A DNA stretch of 64,000 nt. It comes from Escherichia phage EK010. Both the position numbers and the translations under genes were made by a program. The notes beneath the pieces were generated by a model. The model was not told the origin of the DNA. It worked only from the letters and a program-made list of their open reading frames with translations, and did no database searches. Numbering within the stretch: the stretch's first letter is position 1; each line of letters begins with the position of its first letter. Location: sequence record NC_070981.1; one strand, given 5' to 3'. This document shows, in pieces, positions 5,869-33,963 of the stretch.

Positions 5869-6078
5869 ATGACTAGTTTAAGCACGTTAGAGAAGAAAGC
5901 GACTCGACTGTTAGGGCGTCGTGTCCGCTACCACTACCTGAATAAAGGTAAGGCATTAACCGGACGTATTACCACGGTATCCAGTTGTCGCGGTAAACTG
6001 ATCTCTGTAAGTGTTCTCTTTGATGGTGAAAAGGTAGCAATTACACGTAGTTGGAAGTCATTTAGTTTAATTGATTAA
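5869..6078 (+). CDS. hypothetical small protein (69 aa)
   Basis: Track ORF adjacent to previous gene. Confidence 0.5.
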   Translation: MTSLSTLEKKATRLLGRRVRYHYLNKGKALTGRITTVSSCRGKLISVSVLFDGEKVAITRSWKSFSLID

Positions 6079-7497: not shown

Positions 7498-7803
7498 ATG
7501 ACTTTAGAGGTTTATAAGTTCCTTCTCGTACTCACTGTAACGATCTCTACTCTAGGATTTATTGCTTTAAGTAATAAATCAGCAAGCTGGAAGCGTCGTT
7601 ACGAGTTCCTTCTTAAGCAAGAGGAAGTCTTTAATGCTGATGTTCGTTCCAAACTGCTCAAGATGCAGGAGCAAATTGAAGCACGTAATGATCGTTTGGC
7701 TTCTTTGGGTTGGGAGATTAAACGTATTCAAGATCTCAACAAGCAACTCACTGAAGAAATTAAACGCCAGAATGAGGAAACAGAGGATGCGCTCAAAGGT
7801 TAA
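7498..7803 (+). CDS. membrane protein with N-terminal TM helix and coiled coil
   Basis: Track ORF; hydrophobic FLLVLTVTISTLGFIAL. Confidence 0.55.
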   Translation: MTLEVYKFLLVLTVTISTLGFIALSNKSASWKRRYEFLLKQEEVFNADVRSKLLKMQEQIEARNDRLASLGWEIKRIQDLNKQLTEEIKRQNEETEDALKG

Positions 7804-7963
7804 GTTTACCACTGGTAACACTGTTCGCCTTGTTGGCGGTACTCAAACAGGTGTTATTCGTCGGAGAACAACGATTGATGGTGTTCTCTGTTATCTTGTT
7901 CAGTGGAATGGTGAATCTTCTCCTTCCTTCGAACGTCGTACTGATTTGGTGTTAATCAAATGA
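7787..7963 (+). CDS. hypothetical small protein
   Basis: Internal ATG of track ORF 7634-7963 with GAGGAAACAGAGG SD. Confidence 0.4.
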   Translation: MRSKVKFTTGNTVRLVGGTQTGVIRRRTTIDGVLCYLVQWNGESSPSFERRTDLVLIK

Positions 7964-8190
7964 AAATTAATCTCTTCTCTGTAGTTGTTACCAAAAAGCT
8001 CAGTGAGTTACGTCCTGGCGATGTGTTCCGTTTACCAACTAACTCTGAAAATGTCTACCTAAAGACAGACACTAGACTTAACGATATGCATCGTGTGGTT
8101 GGTCTTAGTCAGGGGACACTGTTCCAATTACAGGAAGACCATGAAGTTATCCCTGTACCTGATGTTCAAGTAACTCATATCGGTGGTTAA
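7960..8190 (+). CDS. small protein, paralog family A (LRPGDxF ... EDxEVxPVP)
   Basis: Track ORF; shares motifs with 13142-13390, 9245-9496, 11500-11754. Confidence 0.55.
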   Translation: MKINLFSVVVTKKLSELRPGDVFRLPTNSENVYLKTDTRLNDMHRVVGLSQGTLFQLQEDHEVIPVPDVQVTHIGG

Positions 8191-8499
8191 ATGATAAATC
8201 TTAATATCCGTAGAGGTTTTTACCCTAAAGTCTCTTTCCGTGCTCAACTGGAGCAGCTTCCTGGTGTAACTTTCTTAGAGTTTACCTACAGCTGCGGTCG
8301 AGACAATCCCGGTTTCACTGTCACAATTGAATCTGGTTGGTTTAATATGACCATCATGCCAGAAGATGTTAACAATGCACTCCGTGGTATTAAGTCCGGC
8401 GGCCTAAACCTTTTAGCTCCCAAGGTGGGTGATGAACTTCTCACTGTGATTCGTAATGGTGTGGATAAAACAGCTAAGATGGTTGAAGCTCTTAAGTAA
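8191..8499 (+). CDS. hypothetical protein (102 aa)
   Basis: Track ORF. Confidence 0.55.
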   Translation: MINLNIRRGFYPKVSFRAQLEQLPGVTFLEFTYSCGRDNPGFTVTIESGWFNMTIMPEDVNNALRGIKSGGLNLLAPKVGDELLTVIRNGVDKTAKMVEALK

Positions 8500-8507
8500 C
8501 ATCGACT

Positions 8508-8580
8508 TATAGCCCTTGTGTTTATCAGAGGGCTATGTGAGGGTGTTCCTCAATTAACTATAATCTCAACGCCATATGGC
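8508..8580 (+). repeat. conserved intergenic hairpin element, copy 1 (TATAGCCCTTGTG..TATCAGAGGGCTATGTGAG ... CTCAA.TAAC)
   Basis: About 32/34 identical to copy at 13395; 8-bp inverted repeat ATAGCCCT/AGGGCTAT. Confidence 0.6.
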
Positions 8581-8728
8581 TCACCGCTAGGGCGAGACTT
8601 GTCTCAAACATCCGGTGATAGACTAAAACCTGTTAATTTTCGAACAGCTTTCCGATATGTAGGGGTATGTATCGGTTTGGGATAGAGAACAATCTAGGGG
8701 TAGAGAGTTCTCGACAGTTAGTACAAGC

Positions 8729-8762
8729 GGAAGCCTTAACGTGTAGGGCTTCCCTTTATATT
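8729..8762 (+). terminator. intrinsic terminator
   Basis: GGAAGCC/GGCTTCC stem followed by CTTTATATT. Confidence 0.45.
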
Positions 8763-8801
8763 AACTGGCAATCCTGCCTTCACCAACAAAGAGAGAACGA
8801 T

Positions 8802-8942
8802 ATGAAGAAGACAACCAAACGTATGAACCGTCCTGAGCGTATGGAAGCAGTGGCAAATGGTGCTCTGAAGATTGAGTCTGCCATGCTTCGTCTGACAACT
8901 AACATCCGTAAGCGTCAAGGTGATTGGTTCTACGGTGGATAA
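8802..8942 (+). CDS. hypothetical small protein (46 aa)
   Basis: ATG with AAGAGAGAA SD after terminator; track ORF 8667-8942 would span the terminator. Confidence 0.4.
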   Translation: MKKTTKRMNRPERMEAVANGALKIESAMLRLTTNIRKRQGDWFYGG

Positions 8943-9025
8943 TTAATAATGGGCTGCCCTTAGGGGTGGCCTTTGTTGTTTTAATTAAGGGACAACTCTT
9001 ACTTAAACTAACAAGAGAGGTTGTT

Positions 9026-9235
9026 ATGAACATTCGTTTAGTTCGTGAGCAAGATGGCAGACAGGTTGTGCTAGGTGAGATTATCCGTGCTGCACACAAC
9101 CTACTCCCTGAAAAAGATGAAACTGTCTGGGTTGATGGAGAGTATCGCCGAGTGTTGTCGGTTGTTAAGTCCTTTGAACCAAAGCGTAACAATGAAAAAG
9201 CTCTTACCTGCTGGTTTGAGGTTAATATTACATAA
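9026..9235 (+). CDS. hypothetical small protein
   Basis: Internal ATG of track ORF 8924-9235 with AGAGAGG SD. Confidence 0.45.
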   Translation: MNIRLVREQDGRQVVLGEIIRAAHNLLPEKDETVWVDGEYRRVLSVVKSFEPKRNNEKALTCWFEVNIT

Positions 9236-9244
9236 GGGGTTGAT

Positions 9245-9496
9245 ATGTTCAATCGTTTATTTGACCGTAAAGGTCGCACTGACATACTGATACCTTCTAT
9301 CGGTGTGCCAGCTAAGTTCGGTGAGATACGTGCTGGTGATTTCTTCATGGAATCAGGTCGTCTTCATCTGAAGATCAACCTTGAACACGCTGTTGAAATC
9401 CTTAGTGATGATAAGCCAATCATCGGCACTTCGGTGTACAGTGCAAACCATACTGTATTTGTTGTCAATGTTCAGATTGAGATTAAATCACCATGA
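9245..9496 (+). CDS. small protein, paralog family A
   Basis: Track ORF; FGEIRAGDFF ... LHLKI motifs. Confidence 0.5.
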   Translation: MFNRLFDRKGRTDILIPSIGVPAKFGEIRAGDFFMESGRLHLKINLEHAVEILSDDKPIIGTSVYSANHTVFVVNVQIEIKSP

Positions 9497-9750
9497 AGAC
9501 AAACTTCCGAGCAGCAGTTATTACTAAAGTAATAGCAGTTGGTGATGTAATGATGCAAGTTCCTCTGAACACTCGTTACATTGCCATTGACCGAATGGGT
9601 TATGTGTGGGCTTGGAAGTGGAAGCCTACTTACAATGAACTGTTCGACGAATACCAGTGCGCTGGGCCTTACATGCCAACGTTGGTTGGTGTGTATGAAG
9701 ACGGTCCTTGTCGTACTCCTCAGTTAATTGAACTACCGGCGTGTGCTTAG
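9493..9750 (+). CDS. hypothetical protein (85 aa)
   Basis: Track ORF. Confidence 0.5.
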   Translation: MKTNFRAAVITKVIAVGDVMMQVPLNTRYIAIDRMGYVWAWKWKPTYNELFDEYQCAGPYMPTLVGVYEDGPCRTPQLIELPACA

Positions 9751-9751
9751 T

Positions 9752-9916
9752 ATGATTAAATGGTTCAAGCGTCTTGTGCACCTGCATGATTGGGTAATCC
9801 TTGAAAAATATACGCTGAAGATTACTGACGATCACGGTGGGACAAAGCACAAAGGTCTTCGCTATATTATGCAGTGTAAAGTGTGTGGTCATGTTACCAA
9901 GCGTGACATGATCTAA
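9752..9916 (+). CDS. small CxxC protein, tandem paralog 1 (MIKWFKRL...)
   Basis: Internal ATG of track ORF 9728-9916; near-identical N-terminus to next gene. Confidence 0.5.
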   Translation: MIKWFKRLVHLHDWVILEKYTLKITDDHGGTKHKGLRYIMQCKVCGHVTKRDMI

Positions 9917-9925
9917 GGGATCATT

Positions 9926-10090
9926 ATGATTAAATGGTTCAAGCGTCTCTTTCATTTCCATGAGTGGGAAGATCTTTCTACTTATGAATTGACGATCACA
10001 AATAAACTTACTGACAGAGAGCGACAAGGGTTGCGTATCTACTCTCGCTGTAAAGTGTGTGGTCTGCACAAGAAAACAGATCTGATCTAA
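9926..10090 (+). CDS. small CxxC protein, tandem paralog 2 (MIKWFKRLFHFHEW...CKVCG)
   Basis: Hand-translated 54-aa ORF below track cut-off; paralogous to flanking genes. Confidence 0.5.
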   Translation: MIKWFKRLFHFHEWEDLSTYELTITNKLTDRERQGLRIYSRCKVCGLHKKTDLI

Positions 10091-10098
10091 GGGGTGTT

Positions 10099-10308
10099 AT
10101 GTTCTTTCGTAAGAAAAAGCCCGAAGATTCTGAGTGTAAGCATGAGTGGGTGATCACTGAAAACCTACATATCACTCACGCTAAAGACACTCCAGTCGAG
10201 AGAAAAGAGTCTCGTGTATCTCGTATCTGTAAGCGCTGTTTGAAAATAGAACAGCATAAAGTTCCCGGTCATATTGGTCATGATGTGGCCTTGCGTATTT
10301 TCAGTTAA
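10099..10308 (+). CDS. small CxxC protein, tandem paralog 3
   Basis: Internal ATG of track ORF 10057-10308; shares HEW ... CKRC pattern. Confidence 0.5.
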   Translation: MFFRKKKPEDSECKHEWVITENLHITHAKDTPVERKESRVSRICKRCLKIEQHKVPGHIGHDVALRIFS

Positions 10309-10317
10309 ATAAATATA

Positions 10318-10395
10318 GCACCCTTAGCTCAATTGGATTAGAGTAGCGACCTTCTAAGTCGTCGGTTACAGGTTCGAATCCTGTAGGGTGCACCA
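10318..10395 (+). tRNA. tRNA-Arg (anticodon UCU)
   Basis: Hand-folded cloverleaf: 7-bp acceptor stem GCACCCT/AGGGTGC, anticodon loop CUUCUAA, T-arm ACAGG-TTCGAAT-CCTGT, encoded CCA. Confidence 0.85.
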
Positions 10396-10413
10396 ATTAA
10401 CGTAGGAGGGCAT

Positions 10414-10740
10414 ATGAGCTGGGGTGGTGTAATTACCTTAACCTGTATCTTTATCGCCTGTGTAGCTCTTACAGGCTGCGTACAGCATCGTCCTGATGGA
10501 TGGTGTGCATTATCGGTAGAAGGTGTCTGTGTTTCCCGTTGGCATAGCGGGGAGAAGATTCCTAGTGGTGAAATTGATATGCGTTATGCTGGTGCTTCTT
10601 GTTCTAATGGCGGTGCTGTTGACGAGAAGGCTTATGCAGAGCGTAACATGGAAACCCAAGGTGATTGGTCACGTTATGACTTCATCTCCCGTGGTGTACA
10701 GTGTAGTGGCTCTGTGACAACAACAGGTAAGGAGTGGTGA
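10414..10740 (+). CDS. Cys-rich lipoprotein (lipobox LTGC)
   Basis: Signal peptide VITLTCIFIACVALTGC; track ORF. Confidence 0.6.
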   Translation: MSWGGVITLTCIFIACVALTGCVQHRPDGWCALSVEGVCVSRWHSGEKIPSGEIDMRYAGASCSNGGAVDEKAYAERNMETQGDWSRYDFISRGVQCSGSVTTTGKEW

Positions 10741-10741
10741 T

Positions 10742-10996
10742 ATGTCTGGTCATTATTCTGATACGAAAGCTTTACTGGAAACAGCGGCTCAGACTTCATG
10801 CCAACAGCAAGTAAAAATGTTGTTGGTTGATATTCGTAATCTGCGTTGGCTTATCAAAGAAGGTCATATCGGAAACGCTGCCTATTACAACGTTAAAGAT
10901 ATCCTTCGCCGCCAGCACTTTCTTATCCACGGAAACGTGGTCACTCGCAACTATCAATGGAACGGTCAATGGTTACAGCAGCGTATGTCCTCCTGA
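10742..10996 (+). CDS. hypothetical protein (84 aa)
   Basis: Track ORF. Confidence 0.5.
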   Translation: MSGHYSDTKALLETAAQTSCQQQVKMLLVDIRNLRWLIKEGHIGNAAYYNVKDILRRQHFLIHGNVVTRNYQWNGQWLQQRMSS

Positions 10997-11223
10997 TTTA
11001 TGTTATTGGTTGGTGGTTGGCAGCCATTGTAGTTAAATGGTGCTTCAAAACCAATACACTCTACAACTTCTTCCATTCCTCATGGAGTGGTAAGCCTGAT
11101 GAATACTCTATTTGGACGGTGATATTCTTCTGGCCTTTTATGCTGATCTTTATCCTCTTCTTACCTTTACTTATGTTGATAGGTTGGGTAATGGATAAGG
11201 TGACAATCTTTGTTACTAAGTAA
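10957..11223 (+). CDS. membrane protein (2 predicted TM helices)
   Basis: Track ORF; hydrophobic segments; start uncertain. Confidence 0.45.
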   Translation: MERSMVTAAYVLLIYVIGWWLAAIVVKWCFKTNTLYNFFHSSWSGKPDEYSIWTVIFFWPFMLIFILFLPLLMLIGWVMDKVTIFVTK

Positions 11224-11414
11224 TATCGTGAAGGATTCTTACGAGAGTCCTTTGAGATAGGACTTCAGATCTCCTATCAACTAACCGCTCAATGTTGAGC
11301 ATTTTATTCACATAAGCCCCTCATGGGCTGGGTTTAATGCCGGTAAGCGTTTTACGCTATCCACTACAGCATCGGATTGTTAGGTCTTACATGCAACATT
11401 AATTAATAGGATAT

Positions 11415-11444
11415 GGGAGGATTCGTCCCCTCCCCCTATTTATG
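11415..11444 (+). terminator. possible terminator hairpin
   Basis: GGGAGG/CCTCCC stem, weak T-tract. Confidence 0.3.
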
Positions 11445-11499
11445 AAAGCATTCTTCCGAGAGTTCTCTCATAAATTGGTCCATAACTAAAGGTGGTAAA

Positions 11500-11754
11500 A
11501 TGAAAGTTAACAAACCAGCCAGTAAGAACGCAATACCCCTCAGTGCTTTGCGACTTGGGGATTGCTTCATGTACCCTAACAGTGAAGATGGTGATTTGTA
11601 CATCTTACTGTCTACCGAGTTCTCAACTCGACTCTGCATCAAGGGCGCGGACGAGCATAGACTTGTAGCCTGTCTTAACACAGGCCGAGCGACAGCTCCT
11701 CGTAAAGATGTTGCTGTTATTCCTATTAAAGCTGAAGCAACTATTAAGGAGTAA
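11500..11754 (+). CDS. small protein, paralog family A
   Basis: Track ORF; AAAGGTGG SD; LSALRLGDCF motif. Confidence 0.55.
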   Translation: MKVNKPASKNAIPLSALRLGDCFMYPNSEDGDLYILLSTEFSTRLCIKGADEHRLVACLNTGRATAPRKDVAVIPIKAEATIKE

Positions 11755-11757
11755 GCA

Positions 11758-12021
11758 ATGGCTCTGACCATTAACAAAACTCGTATTGCGGATATTCCTC
11801 TAATGGTGGCAGGTGTTTCTATCGGTTCTTTCTTTACTTTGAAAGAAGATAAAGAACAAACCATTTACATGAAAGTGAACAAAAGCTCTAATGGTTGTGA
11901 ATACCACCGAGCTGTGTCTATGCAGAGTGGATACGTTCGTAATATGGCATCCAATATGCCAGTTGGTATTGTGTTTGAATCAGCAACTCTGGATTTAGTG
12001 GAGAAGATCAGTGAAACATAA
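11758..12021 (+). CDS. small protein, weak paralog family A member
   Basis: Track ORF. Confidence 0.5.
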   Translation: MALTINKTRIADIPLMVAGVSIGSFFTLKEDKEQTIYMKVNKSSNGCEYHRAVSMQSGYVRNMASNMPVGIVFESATLDLVEKISET

Positions 12022-12268
12022 AGACCATCCAAAGTATGTATCGCTATTGGATGCAGCCCTTCTCTGCACGTACTGGCTCCTTATTATTATTGGGGTTGTG
12101 CTAATGATATGTGGTGTCGTACAGTTCTTTATGTATCTACAAAGCGTGTTAGATATCACATTAGCTAACACTATAATCCTTGCAATTCTCGGTGTTATTG
12201 CTTTCTGTGTGATTGTCTTCTTCGTTTGGTTATCTATGAACGACGACTCTACACACACCTTCTATTGA
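12011..12268 (+). CDS. membrane protein (2 TM helices)
   Basis: Track ORF; strongly hydrophobic. Confidence 0.5.
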   Translation: MKHKDHPKYVSLLDAALLCTYWLLIIIGVVLMICGVVQFFMYLQSVLDITLANTIILAILGVIAFCVIVFFVWLSMNDDSTHTFY

Positions 12269-12281
12269 CAGGAGAAAATCA

Positions 12282-12398
12282 ATGAGAAAACGTGCCTACT
12301 CTGAAGAAGAAATGGTTAACTTGAAAGGCTTCGGTCAACGACAGCCTGACGGCTCAGTTATCTGGTACATTAACGGACAGAAAAAGGCAAGTAAATAA
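12282..12398 (+). CDS. possible small protein (38 aa)
   Basis: ATG with GGAGAAAA SD; below track cut-off. Confidence 0.3.
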   Translation: MRKRAYSEEEMVNLKGFGQRQPDGSVIWYINGQKKASK

Positions 12399-12467
12399 GC
12401 CCTCTTCTCTCCTCCTTTTAACTACTATGACGCCTCTCTTTTCGGCGCTGTTTTGGAGCTTCAAAAA

Positions 12468-12881
12468 ATGGCTGGGAAATTCCCCAACGTAAGCAAGAAA
12501 TTGGCTTACCTCACGTATAAAGAAAACATTGATCTTCTGGTCAAGCTATATCCGGCTTCATTCAACAAGCAATTCCCTCTTCCTTTGGAGCTTAATGTCC
12601 ACAAGGAAATCGCCCGCAAGACTGGTTGGTCAGCGGAGAAAACAAGCATGGTGCTCAACATCTGGACTACTCGTATGGAGTATGTGATGATGGCCTGTAG
12701 CACTGGTAAACGCTTCAAGCTGCACTCTGTAGCTATGAAGATTCATAGCCCTATTGACCCTGAGCCGATGGCTGGCTTTATTAGCCGTCTGAAATCTTTC
12801 CGTGATCGTGGTCGTGTAGTGAAATTCAAGCATGACTTCTCTTACAAGTTTGGATACGAAGCGTTCCAATTTGTTGTTTAA
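12468..12881 (+). CDS. hypothetical protein
   Basis: ATG inside track ORF 12453-12881. Confidence 0.55.
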   Translation: MAGKFPNVSKKLAYLTYKENIDLLVKLYPASFNKQFPLPLELNVHKEIARKTGWSAEKTSMVLNIWTTRMEYVMMACSTGKRFKLHSVAMKIHSPIDPEPMAGFISRLKSFRDRGRVVKFKHDFSYKFGYEAFQFVV

Positions 12882-12908
12882 TCTCTCTTTAATGTAAGGT
12901 AATAAAAC

Positions 12909-13142
12909 ATGTCTAAAGTTAGCGCAATTGATGCCATCCGTCAGCCGTTCCAGTTCCAGTCTAAATCAACTCAGACCCACAGCGAACCGCGTCAGATTCG
13001 TCTGGGCGGTACAGAGAAGTCTGTGTTTGATATTGCGAAAAACAAAAGCGTAACCATCGTCGAAGGCGGCGAGCTGGTTAATGTTTCCCATCGTATCCGC
13101 ACTGGCAAAACTGCCAAAGATCGTGCTAAGAAAGGTCTGTAA
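12909..13142 (+). CDS. hypothetical protein (77 aa)
   Basis: Track ORF. Confidence 0.5.
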   Translation: MSKVSAIDAIRQPFQFQSKSTQTHSEPRQIRLGGTEKSVFDIAKNKSVTIVEGGELVNVSHRIRTGKTAKDRAKKGL

Positions 13143-13390
13143 TGCAAATTGCTGATAAAATTCCTAAACAAACTTCCAAAATAAAGGATCTTTATTCAGG
13201 GAGTGTGTTCCGCTCTGTTAAATATCCAGAAGAGTTCTTTATCAGAGTTCCTTCCATACAGGCTGGAGGCCACTCTAAACCAGTAACAGCTGCAAATTTA
13301 AGTACAGGACATCTATACCGACTGGATGAAGATCTGGAAGTATACCCTGTCCCAGCAGCAATCCTCCGCTTCGATGGAGCCACAGAGTAA
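13142..13390 (+). CDS. small protein, paralog family A
   Basis: Track ORF; LDEDLEVYPVP motif shared with 7960-8190. Confidence 0.55.
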   Translation: MQIADKIPKQTSKIKDLYSGSVFRSVKYPEEFFIRVPSIQAGGHSKPVTAANLSTGHLYRLDEDLEVYPVPAAILRFDGATE

Positions 13391-13394
13391 CATC

Positions 13395-13465
13395 TATAGC
13401 CCTTGTGAGTATCAGAGGGCTATGTGAGCTATTCTGGCTCAACTAACCTAAACTTAATTTAATCT
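13395..13465 (+). repeat. conserved intergenic hairpin element, copy 2
   Basis: Same sequence module as 8508-8580, again directly after a stop codon. Confidence 0.6.
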
Positions 13466-13586: not shown

Positions 13587-13611
13587 GGCTCTCTTAGGAG
13601 AGTCCTTTTTT
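13587..13611 (+). terminator. intrinsic terminator
   Basis: GGCTCTC/GAGAGTCC stem with one bulge, TTTTTT. Confidence 0.55.
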
Positions 13612-33954: not shown

Positions 33955-33963
33955 TAATGTATA
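33955..33963 (+). promoter_or_regulatory. TAATGTATA motif, candidate phage-sigma promoter element
   Basis: Exact 9-mer 33 nt upstream of ATG 33996. Confidence 0.4.

Follow-up and report, generated by a model that had tools for sequence, protein, structure and literature searches.

We analysed a stretch of 64,000 nucleotides from Escherichia phage EK010 (NC_070981.1; hereafter the window), in which an initial annotation made from the letters alone had pointed to at least four or five paralogous proteins of about 80 residues, scattered through a region of small genes. All five of the open reading frames (ORFs) in question are present, on the + strand, and encode proteins of 76-87 residues. We refer to them as P1 to P5:

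P1, 7960-8190, + strand: 76 residues; a certain family member and the hub of the similarities within the window; modelled as an SH3-like barrel.
P2, 9245-9496, + strand: 83 residues; a probable, strongly diverged member.
P3, 11500-11754, + strand: 84 residues; a certain member that opens a tandem pair.
P4, 11758-12021, + strand: 87 residues; a certain yet diverged member that starts 3 nt after the P3 stop codon.
P5, 13142-13390, + strand: 82 residues; a certain member, the last gene ahead of a terminator-like hairpin.

The 7.5-kb stretch around these genes is 99.9% identical to Escherichia phage E20-1 (Kuravirus, Gordonclarkvirinae) and 90-97% identical to about twenty other phiEco32-like phages, with 106 phage records matching overall. 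In E20-1, the five genes are annotated coding sequences labelled 'hypothetical protein' (ORF105, ORF101, ORF96, ORF94, and ORF89, respectively). The annotation of phage SU7 carries the same ORF in four of the five cases; the counterpart of P2 is a longer coding sequence there, SU7_102, of 103 residues.

P1-P5 lie within a run of tightly packed small genes on the + strand, with overlaps of start and stop codons at P1, P2, P4, and P5. The start of P1 overlaps the stop of the preceding gene (ATGA), and P5 overlaps the stop codon of the gene before it by one base. A strong Shine-Dalgarno sequence, AAAGGTGG, lies upstream of P3, and the SU7 record has an annotated promoter directly upstream of the P3 orthologue. 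There is a tRNA-Arg gene in the middle of the run, and the terminator-like hairpin after P5 is at 13587-13604. The early gene class was determined experimentally in phiEco32 and has been transferred to phages SU10 and YF01 (PMC8948821, PMC4281155, PMC9965538). From synteny with phiEco32, in which that class was measured, we infer that P1-P5 belong to the early region transcribed with sigma-70; it is on this footing that the earlier placement of the genes in an early region stands. An exact promoter of the phage-sigma (gp36) type, TAATGTATA, first appears on the + strand at 33955, with none upstream of it and thus none in or near the small-gene region. The only exact copies of this phiEco32 gp36-holoenzyme element in the window are at 33955 (+), 40802 (+), 40731 (-), and 50937 (-), well downstream of the small genes and consistent with middle and late promoters; sites with one mismatch occur at the level expected by chance.

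Pairwise searches among the 395 six-frame ORFs of at least 40 residues in the window (phmmer) link P1 to P5 (E = 1e-5), to P3 (E = 0.006), and to P4 (E = 0.003-0.008), at pairwise identities among members of 25-35%. A narrow hidden Markov model (HMM) built from P1, P3, P5, and their homologues detects P4 over nearly its full length (E = 0.0034). When the HMM was iterated for one round over the ORFs of the window together with those of phiEco32 and phage 7-11 (895 in all), P5 was recovered at E = 7e-24, P3 at 8e-21, P1 within that range, and P4 at 5.6e-11, with noise beginning at E = 1.5. As a control, we compared a family profile of 63 sequences with every ORF of up to 200 residues in the window (n = 367) using hhalign. 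The five claimed ORFs took ranks 1 to 5: P1, P3, and P5 at 99.4-99.5%, P4 at 87.6% (E = 3.5e-6, full length), and P2 at 50.6%. Rank 6 scored 8.4% and the remaining ORFs less than 3%; the ORF at rank 6, ORF100 (9493-9750), was dismissed at this value. Neither this control nor the HMM search found a further family member across the 64-kb window.

Matches to PHROG families agree with this grouping. P1, P3, and P5 cross-match each other's families (16423, 7832, 6570, 7431, 9955, and 8365), with P3 matching PHROG 7832 at E = 9e-22 and P5 matching PHROG 6570 at E = 2e-14 and cross-matching six further family PHROGs. P4 falls in PHROG 12612, which is linked in by a cross-match to 7431 and is also matched by P5; in addition, P4 matches phi32_95 of phiEco32 by BLASTP (E = 7e-9). 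MAFFT alignment of the raw sequences, whether of five or of four, mis-registered the N-terminal motif of P4 onto the C-terminal motif of the family, an error that the broader profile corrected.

Judged by sequence comparison, then, the four genes P1, P3, P4, and P5 are homologous beyond doubt, and the fifth, P2, is probably so. The paralogous family originally described is borne out by the HMM, the whole-window hhalign control, and the PHROG cross-matches. The possibility that the shared residues lack statistical support fails for P1, P3, P4, and P5. The initial annotation had named 11758-12021 as the weak member; because P4 is secure (HMM, 5.6e-11; hhalign, 87.6%) and P2 is doubtful, that ranking is reversed, and the weak member is 9245-9496.

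The members share a recognisable set of motifs. A relaxed N-terminal motif, [LIVMF]xx[LIVM]xxG[DES]xF, occurs in all of P1-P5 and in none (0/390) of the other six-frame ORFs in the window; shuffling the residues of the 395 ORFs gives a mean of 1.0 expected match compared with the five observed. The L(S/R)xLRxGDxF core first attributed to the proteins is found in all five in this relaxed form, whereas in its strict form, L[SR]xLRxGDxF, it is present only in P1 and P3. The C-terminal motif reported for two members is indeed there in P1 and P5, but its wording was off by one residue; it reads L(Q/D)EDxEVxPVP. This is a local form of a D..V.P[VI] motif that runs through the whole family; it is easily recognised in P1, P3, and P5, whereas P4 has a degenerate version and P2 none. 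The family consensus is MKI...(v)x[FL]xxLxxG[DE]xF...Y[MI]K...aVxLxtG...DxxVIPVxa. Membership can be read from the series [LIVMF]xx[LIV]xxG[DE]xF ... Y[MIL]K ... VxLxxG ... DxxV[IV]P[VI] within a single domain of 70-90 residues, and this arrangement was found. Most conserved columns are hydrophobic or Gly, a pattern that is as expected of the core and turns of a putative beta-barrel, while the stretches between conserved segments differ in both sequence and length, with insertions and deletions concentrated in two loops. Both halves of the domain carry LxxGxxFxL; an internal duplication was considered and is unsupported, with the N-terminal half matching the C-terminal half at only 32% over 13 columns (hhalign).

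The position of P2 required closer weighing. P1 and P2 are reciprocal best non-self matches in phmmer, at values that are not significant (E = 0.27-0.39). In the iterated HMM, P2 is the top non-member (E = 0.054), ahead of the noise at 1.5. Its N-terminal half is recognisable and its C-terminal half has drifted, and as a single sequence it aligns to the family profile at the 50.6% given above over only 26 columns. Its sole PHROG match is 22099, with no cross-match to the family PHROGs, and an AlphaFold model built from five close homologues was unusable (pLDDT, predicted local distance difference test, of 41). These features, together with plain HMM values that reach only E = 0.054-0.68, favour the view that just four genes form the family and that 9245-9496 encodes an unrelated small beta-protein whose (I/L)RxGDxF hairpin arose by chance or convergence. 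We consider this unlikely. P2 ranks fifth of the 367 ORFs in the hhalign control, with a clear gap before the sixth, and its length is close to that of the others (83 compared with 76-87 residues). A profile of P2 aligned against the family profile (A5 against A6) gives 93.7% and E = 1.8e-7 over 56 columns spanning both halves, in which the strongly hydrophobic C-terminal stretch of P2 is aligned with the last strand of the family. Moreover, the orthologue of P2 in phage TH34 matches the family HMM at E = 2.6e-5, and the slot that P2 occupies corresponds in phiEco32 to phi32_109/110, of which phi32_109 is a certain member. P2 is therefore best described as a probable divergent family member. 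That the likeness of all five proteins is a chance or compositional artefact and that no family exists, as the low pairwise identities (just 25-35%) and the MAFFT misalignment of P4 might suggest, has next to no chance of being right and is refuted for four members by E-values down to 1e-24 with independent profiles, by the whole-window control and the PHROG cross-matches, and by the 248 matches, mostly full-length proteins of 70-90 residues, of the exhaustive search described next.

We searched exhaustively with the family HMM through 1.84 billion cluster representatives of a library clustered at 50% identity and obtained 248 proteins at E <=0.001. Most are 70-90 residues long and match end to end; among the others are a handful of tandem two-domain fusions and one protein with a C-terminal helix-turn-helix. 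Five large repetitive matches (P0022, P0024, P0039, P0103, and P0134) were set aside as false positives arising from summed weak repeats. Phage N4 has a single member, gp21 (E = 3.6e-19 against the family HMM). phiEco32 has nine (gp95-98, 104, 109, and 113-115) and Salmonella phage 7-11 has four; Bas88, TH42, and NC-B have five each plus the P2 type, and TH34 has seven plus the P2 type. The phiEco32 RNA polymerase binder gp79, tried as a candidate member, does not match the family HMM. Adjacent pairs of members also occur on two unrelated metagenomic phage contigs. The family is widespread in virulent phages, and since it numbers nine members in phiEco32 and reaches as far as N4 gp21 and the 248 matches, the initial annotation understated it; these comparisons indicate a family both larger and better supported than was supposed.

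Names attached to these relatives are of little help. A word-indexed search for homologues returned only Kuravirus-like relatives with no informative names, no Pfam or NCBIfam model was matched by any member tested, and the family PHROGs (6570, 7832, 16423, 7431, 9955, 8365, and 12612) are all of 'unknown function'. Five distant members have only arrays of small genes without annotation around them, with the exception of one Gad2-like neighbour. This neighbour, a gene for a Gad2-like nucleotidyltransferase, lies directly downstream of the distant member P0023 (79 residues; L005 158-397, from the 122-kb parent contig JGI 3300059473). P0023 in turn lies directly downstream of another family member, with several more genes of 79-82 residues nearby, in what is seemingly a large virulent phage.

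AlphaFold models P1 as a five-stranded SH3-like beta-barrel (pLDDT 80). The best matches of this model in BFVD are uncharacterised phage proteins, N4 gp21 included, and the closest folds include those of uL2, the KOW domains of Spt5, domain I of EF-P/eIF5A, CarD, and PWWP. No match at E <=0.001 was found by Foldseek against the PDB, and a sequence search of the PDB gave no related solved structure (best E = 0.15, chance level). Pfam SH3 families likewise gave no match at E <=1 for the five window proteins or at E <=0.01 for 63 diverse members, and DUF7244 appeared in no Pfam scan of members, although the Pfam set used includes neighbouring new families such as DUF7247. FliN/SpoA (PF01052) matched P1 only, at 12.7 bits (E = 0.12) over 24 residues, below its gathering score of 23.8 bits. 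The family profile does weakly pick up the SH3_3 repeats of P0025, a multi-SH3 lysozyme with 11 SH3_3 domains (hhalign, 38% over 31 columns, a weak similarity). On the strength of the model, the fold class is SH3-like, and the proteins fall outside every named SH3 family tested. The HMM and profile searches and the structure prediction proposed alongside the initial annotation thus confirm the family for four members and give P1 as a predicted SH3-like barrel; we regard the family and its fold class, as described here, as very likely correct.

The members sit where related phages differ. Alignment with phiEco32 (blastn) yields conserved blocks of 70-90% identity that alternate with blocks without similarity, and every family member falls in a non-matching block. 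The corresponding slots are as follows, named by the genes that they contain:

ORF106, P1, and ORF104 here; gp115, gp114, and gp113 in phiEco32.
ORF102 and P2 here; gp110 and gp109 in phiEco32.
P3, P4, and ORF93 here; gp99-gp95 in phiEco32.
P5 here; gp92 and gp91 in phiEco32.

Members in corresponding slots are only 28-35% identical. Directly after P1, this phage has ORF104 (8191-8499, 102 residues), which matches Pfam DUF7247 (E = 2e-13) and is missing from SU7, whereas Bas88, TH42, TH34, and NC-B have in the same slot a sixth, 74-residue family member (MKIDID...GDLxPGEVFQF). The genes of the family therefore lie in cassettes that are swapped as whole units among phages otherwise much alike. 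A hairpin-forming repeat of 34 nt, TATAGCCCTTGTG(T/A)(T/G)TATCAGAGGGCTATGTGAG, occurs at 8508-8541 and again at 13395-13428 with 94% identity, where none is expected by chance. The two copies follow, by a few bases on the 3' side, the final genes of variable cassettes (ORF104 and P5), and phiEco32 has the element as well (67988-68021). Possible roles are those of a terminator or processing signal, or of a boundary at which recombination exchanges cassettes.

We estimated the ratio of nonsynonymous to synonymous substitution rates (dN/dS) for the five genes against five relatives by the method of Nei and Gojobori. Across all five genes the ratio is 0.02-0.43: 0.02-0.29 for P2, which is 83% identical in TH34; about 0.10 for P3 against four relatives, with zero amino-acid differences from SU7; 0.17-0.20 for P4; and 0.18-0.26 for P5, whose dS is 1.1-1.6 against four relatives. 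These ratios show the five genes to be functional and maintained by purifying selection. For P1, P4, and P5, dS is 0.5-1.6, compared with 0.1-0.3 in neighbouring genes, a 3- to 10-fold increase that is better accounted for by diverged alleles brought in through recombination than by faster point evolution.

These properties lead us to a proposal for function. Each copy would be produced early in infection and act in the cytoplasm as a binding module without enzymatic activity. The barrel would be constant and carry variable loops, which would bind one host macromolecule, for instance a target of host takeover or an immune protein, and block or redirect it; paralogues would differ in target, and a phage lineage would diversify its set by duplicating and exchanging cassettes. 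Pfam and NCBIfam scans matched members to no catalytic family. The isoelectric points of members are mostly neutral to acidic (median 5.8, with 13% above 8; 6.3-8.5 for the window copies). Inspection of P1-P5 by eye, without a predictor, revealed no apparent signal peptide or membrane segment, and so no route to the periplasm is evident. A role in host interaction or counter-defence, as suggested initially, would be compatible with the swapped cassettes, the variable copy number, the small non-enzymatic binding folds, and the one Gad2-like adjacency, although this adjacency, a feature of one distant member, is a single anecdote and at most a hint. We offer the binding-module mechanism tentatively, as somewhat less than probable by itself; for the explanation as a whole, blending family, fold, and mechanism, we lean modestly in favour. 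The bolder version, in which N4 gp21-like barrels form a modular, exchangeable arsenal whose paralogues each use their variable loops to inhibit a defence or takeover target of their own in E. coli, and in which slot swapping retunes the host range of Kuraviruses and N4-like phages, seems to us unlikely.

Several observations weigh against the binding-module proposal. In P2 and P3, conservation is roughly on a par with that of neighbouring genes, which would suit a housekeeping role as well as a role in conflict, and there is no gene-wide sign of an arms race in the dN/dS values of the five genes, which as gene-wide estimates are well below 1. Our usable structural model is that of P1, the model of P2 having failed. 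Literature searches covering phiEco32 locus tags, N4 gp21, and accessory-gene and essentiality screens turned up nothing on the function of any member, and no binding partner, phenotype, or expression measurement for any of them. Finally, nucleic acids are as frequent a ligand of SH3-like barrels as proteins are.

The main rival is a reading in which the proteins are small KOW-, Tudor-, or Sm-like barrels that bind RNA or DNA, adjusting the transcription or translation of phage or host, with paralogues recognising different sites. All five fold neighbours named above for the P1 model make contact with nucleic acid or RNA polymerase, the distant member P0049 carries a fused helix-turn-helix at its C-terminal end, and gp36 and gp79 are the means by which the phage remodels host transcription (PMC8948821). 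However, a median isoelectric point of 5.8, with only 13% of members above 8, does not favour nucleic-acid binding, and the alignment contains no conserved basic patch, its only conserved basic residues being K2 and K35. The helix-turn-helix fusion, too, is the only one among the longer matches inspected, and its helix-turn-helix scores fall below Pfam thresholds. We therefore judge nucleic-acid binding doubtful as the explanation for the family.

That the proteins are instead accessory lysis or cell-wall-binding modules, stand-alone SH3b domains that would assist the endolysin in the manner of DUF7244 of T1-like phages, strikes us as quite improbable. A stand-alone SH3 protein has been proposed in the lysis module of T1-like phages (PMC13164509), the family profile reaches the SH3_3 repeats of lysozyme P0025 (hhalign, 38%, 31 columns), two members in phage 7-11 flank the endolysin gene, and P3 and P4 precede a small membrane protein labelled holin in E20-1. 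Yet neither DUF7244 nor any Pfam SH3 family is matched by a member at E = 1 or better, no export signal is apparent by eye, the holin label has no Pfam support, and 4-9 copies per genome in the early region are a misfit for such a role.

If the family is placed among known systems, the closest relative is N4 gp21, which belongs with the family PHROGs to the same family by sequence and has its length, motifs, and predicted fold in common with them. It is the best-known member, and the match names the family without explaining its function. gp21 is present in a single copy outside the gp1-gp16 block of N4, whereas Kuraviruses have 5-9 copies in a region that is probably early; we take gp21 to be among the N4 middle genes. 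DUF7244 of T1-like phages is likewise a stand-alone SH3-clan protein of a virulent coliphage with no demonstrated function (PMC13164509), but it is single-copy and tied to the lysis module, while the family here is multi-copy, early, and without a Pfam match to it. Bacterial SH3 domains (SH3_3/SH3b) are of the same fold class and show a weak profile similarity over the first three strands; the family members, however, fall below all Pfam SH3 thresholds, lack an apparent export signal, and occur without fusion to cell-wall enzymes. The SH3-like domains of FeoA and of the DtxR C-terminus belong to cellular proteins of iron uptake and regulation, with no sequence relationship to the family detected. 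For CarD, the UvrD C-terminus, the RapA N-terminus, and the NusG/Spt5 KOW (Tudor-like) domains, the resemblance is one of fold only, with no sequence similarity found.

A multi-copy family of tiny genes built on a common small-barrel fold is in itself an ordinary thing for a virulent phage to have, and tiny multi-copy early gene families make up a large share of phage 'dark matter'. What is new here is that at least seven PHROGs of unknown function, N4 gp21, and 5-9 genes in each Kuravirus genome are joined into one family with defined motifs, that a fold is assigned to it, and that its fixed exchange slots are mapped. The result is a compact and testable set of genes, five here and nine in phiEco32, with phages available in the BASEL collection (Bas86-88). 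Should the proteins be inhibitors of host factors or immunity, they would make up a sizeable new inhibitor scaffold, and in the bolder version above a large anti-defence family, so far unrecognised and comparable to the anti-CRISPR families; if they are not inhibitors, this would be an ordinary uncharacterised accessory family.

The surrounding genes gave several further observations. Two database labels look unreliable from the proteins' features. ORF107 (7498-7803), a 'DNA helicase' in E20-1, in Bas88, and as gp116 in phiEco32, encodes 101 residues, hydrophobic in an N-terminal segment and coiled-coil-like in the tail; ORF93 (12011-12268), the 'holin' of E20-1, encodes an 85-residue membrane protein with only sub-threshold Pfam matches. 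Two tiny ORFs, at 7787-7963 (58 residues) and 5869-6078 (69 residues), resemble small barrels of the Tudor or KOW type, the former with weak Pfam matches to Mtf2_C and to the CUL7 N-terminal barrel. As the family HMM matches neither of them, further small-barrel proteins, unrelated to the family, may be encoded in the early region. At 10414-10740 there is an ORF of 108 residues, unannotated in E20-1 and annotated in SU7 (SU7_97), that matches Pfam Phage_lipoprotein at E = 3e-36. Lastly, the adjacent genes at 9728-9916 and 9926-10090 are paralogues of 62 and 54 residues that start MIKWFKRL.H.H.W and end with CKVCG, and they have in common a 75-nt direct repeat of 71% identity. The next gene (10099-10308) has a similar H.W...C..C layout and is a possible third member of this second small family, whose proteins may be zinc-ribbon-like.

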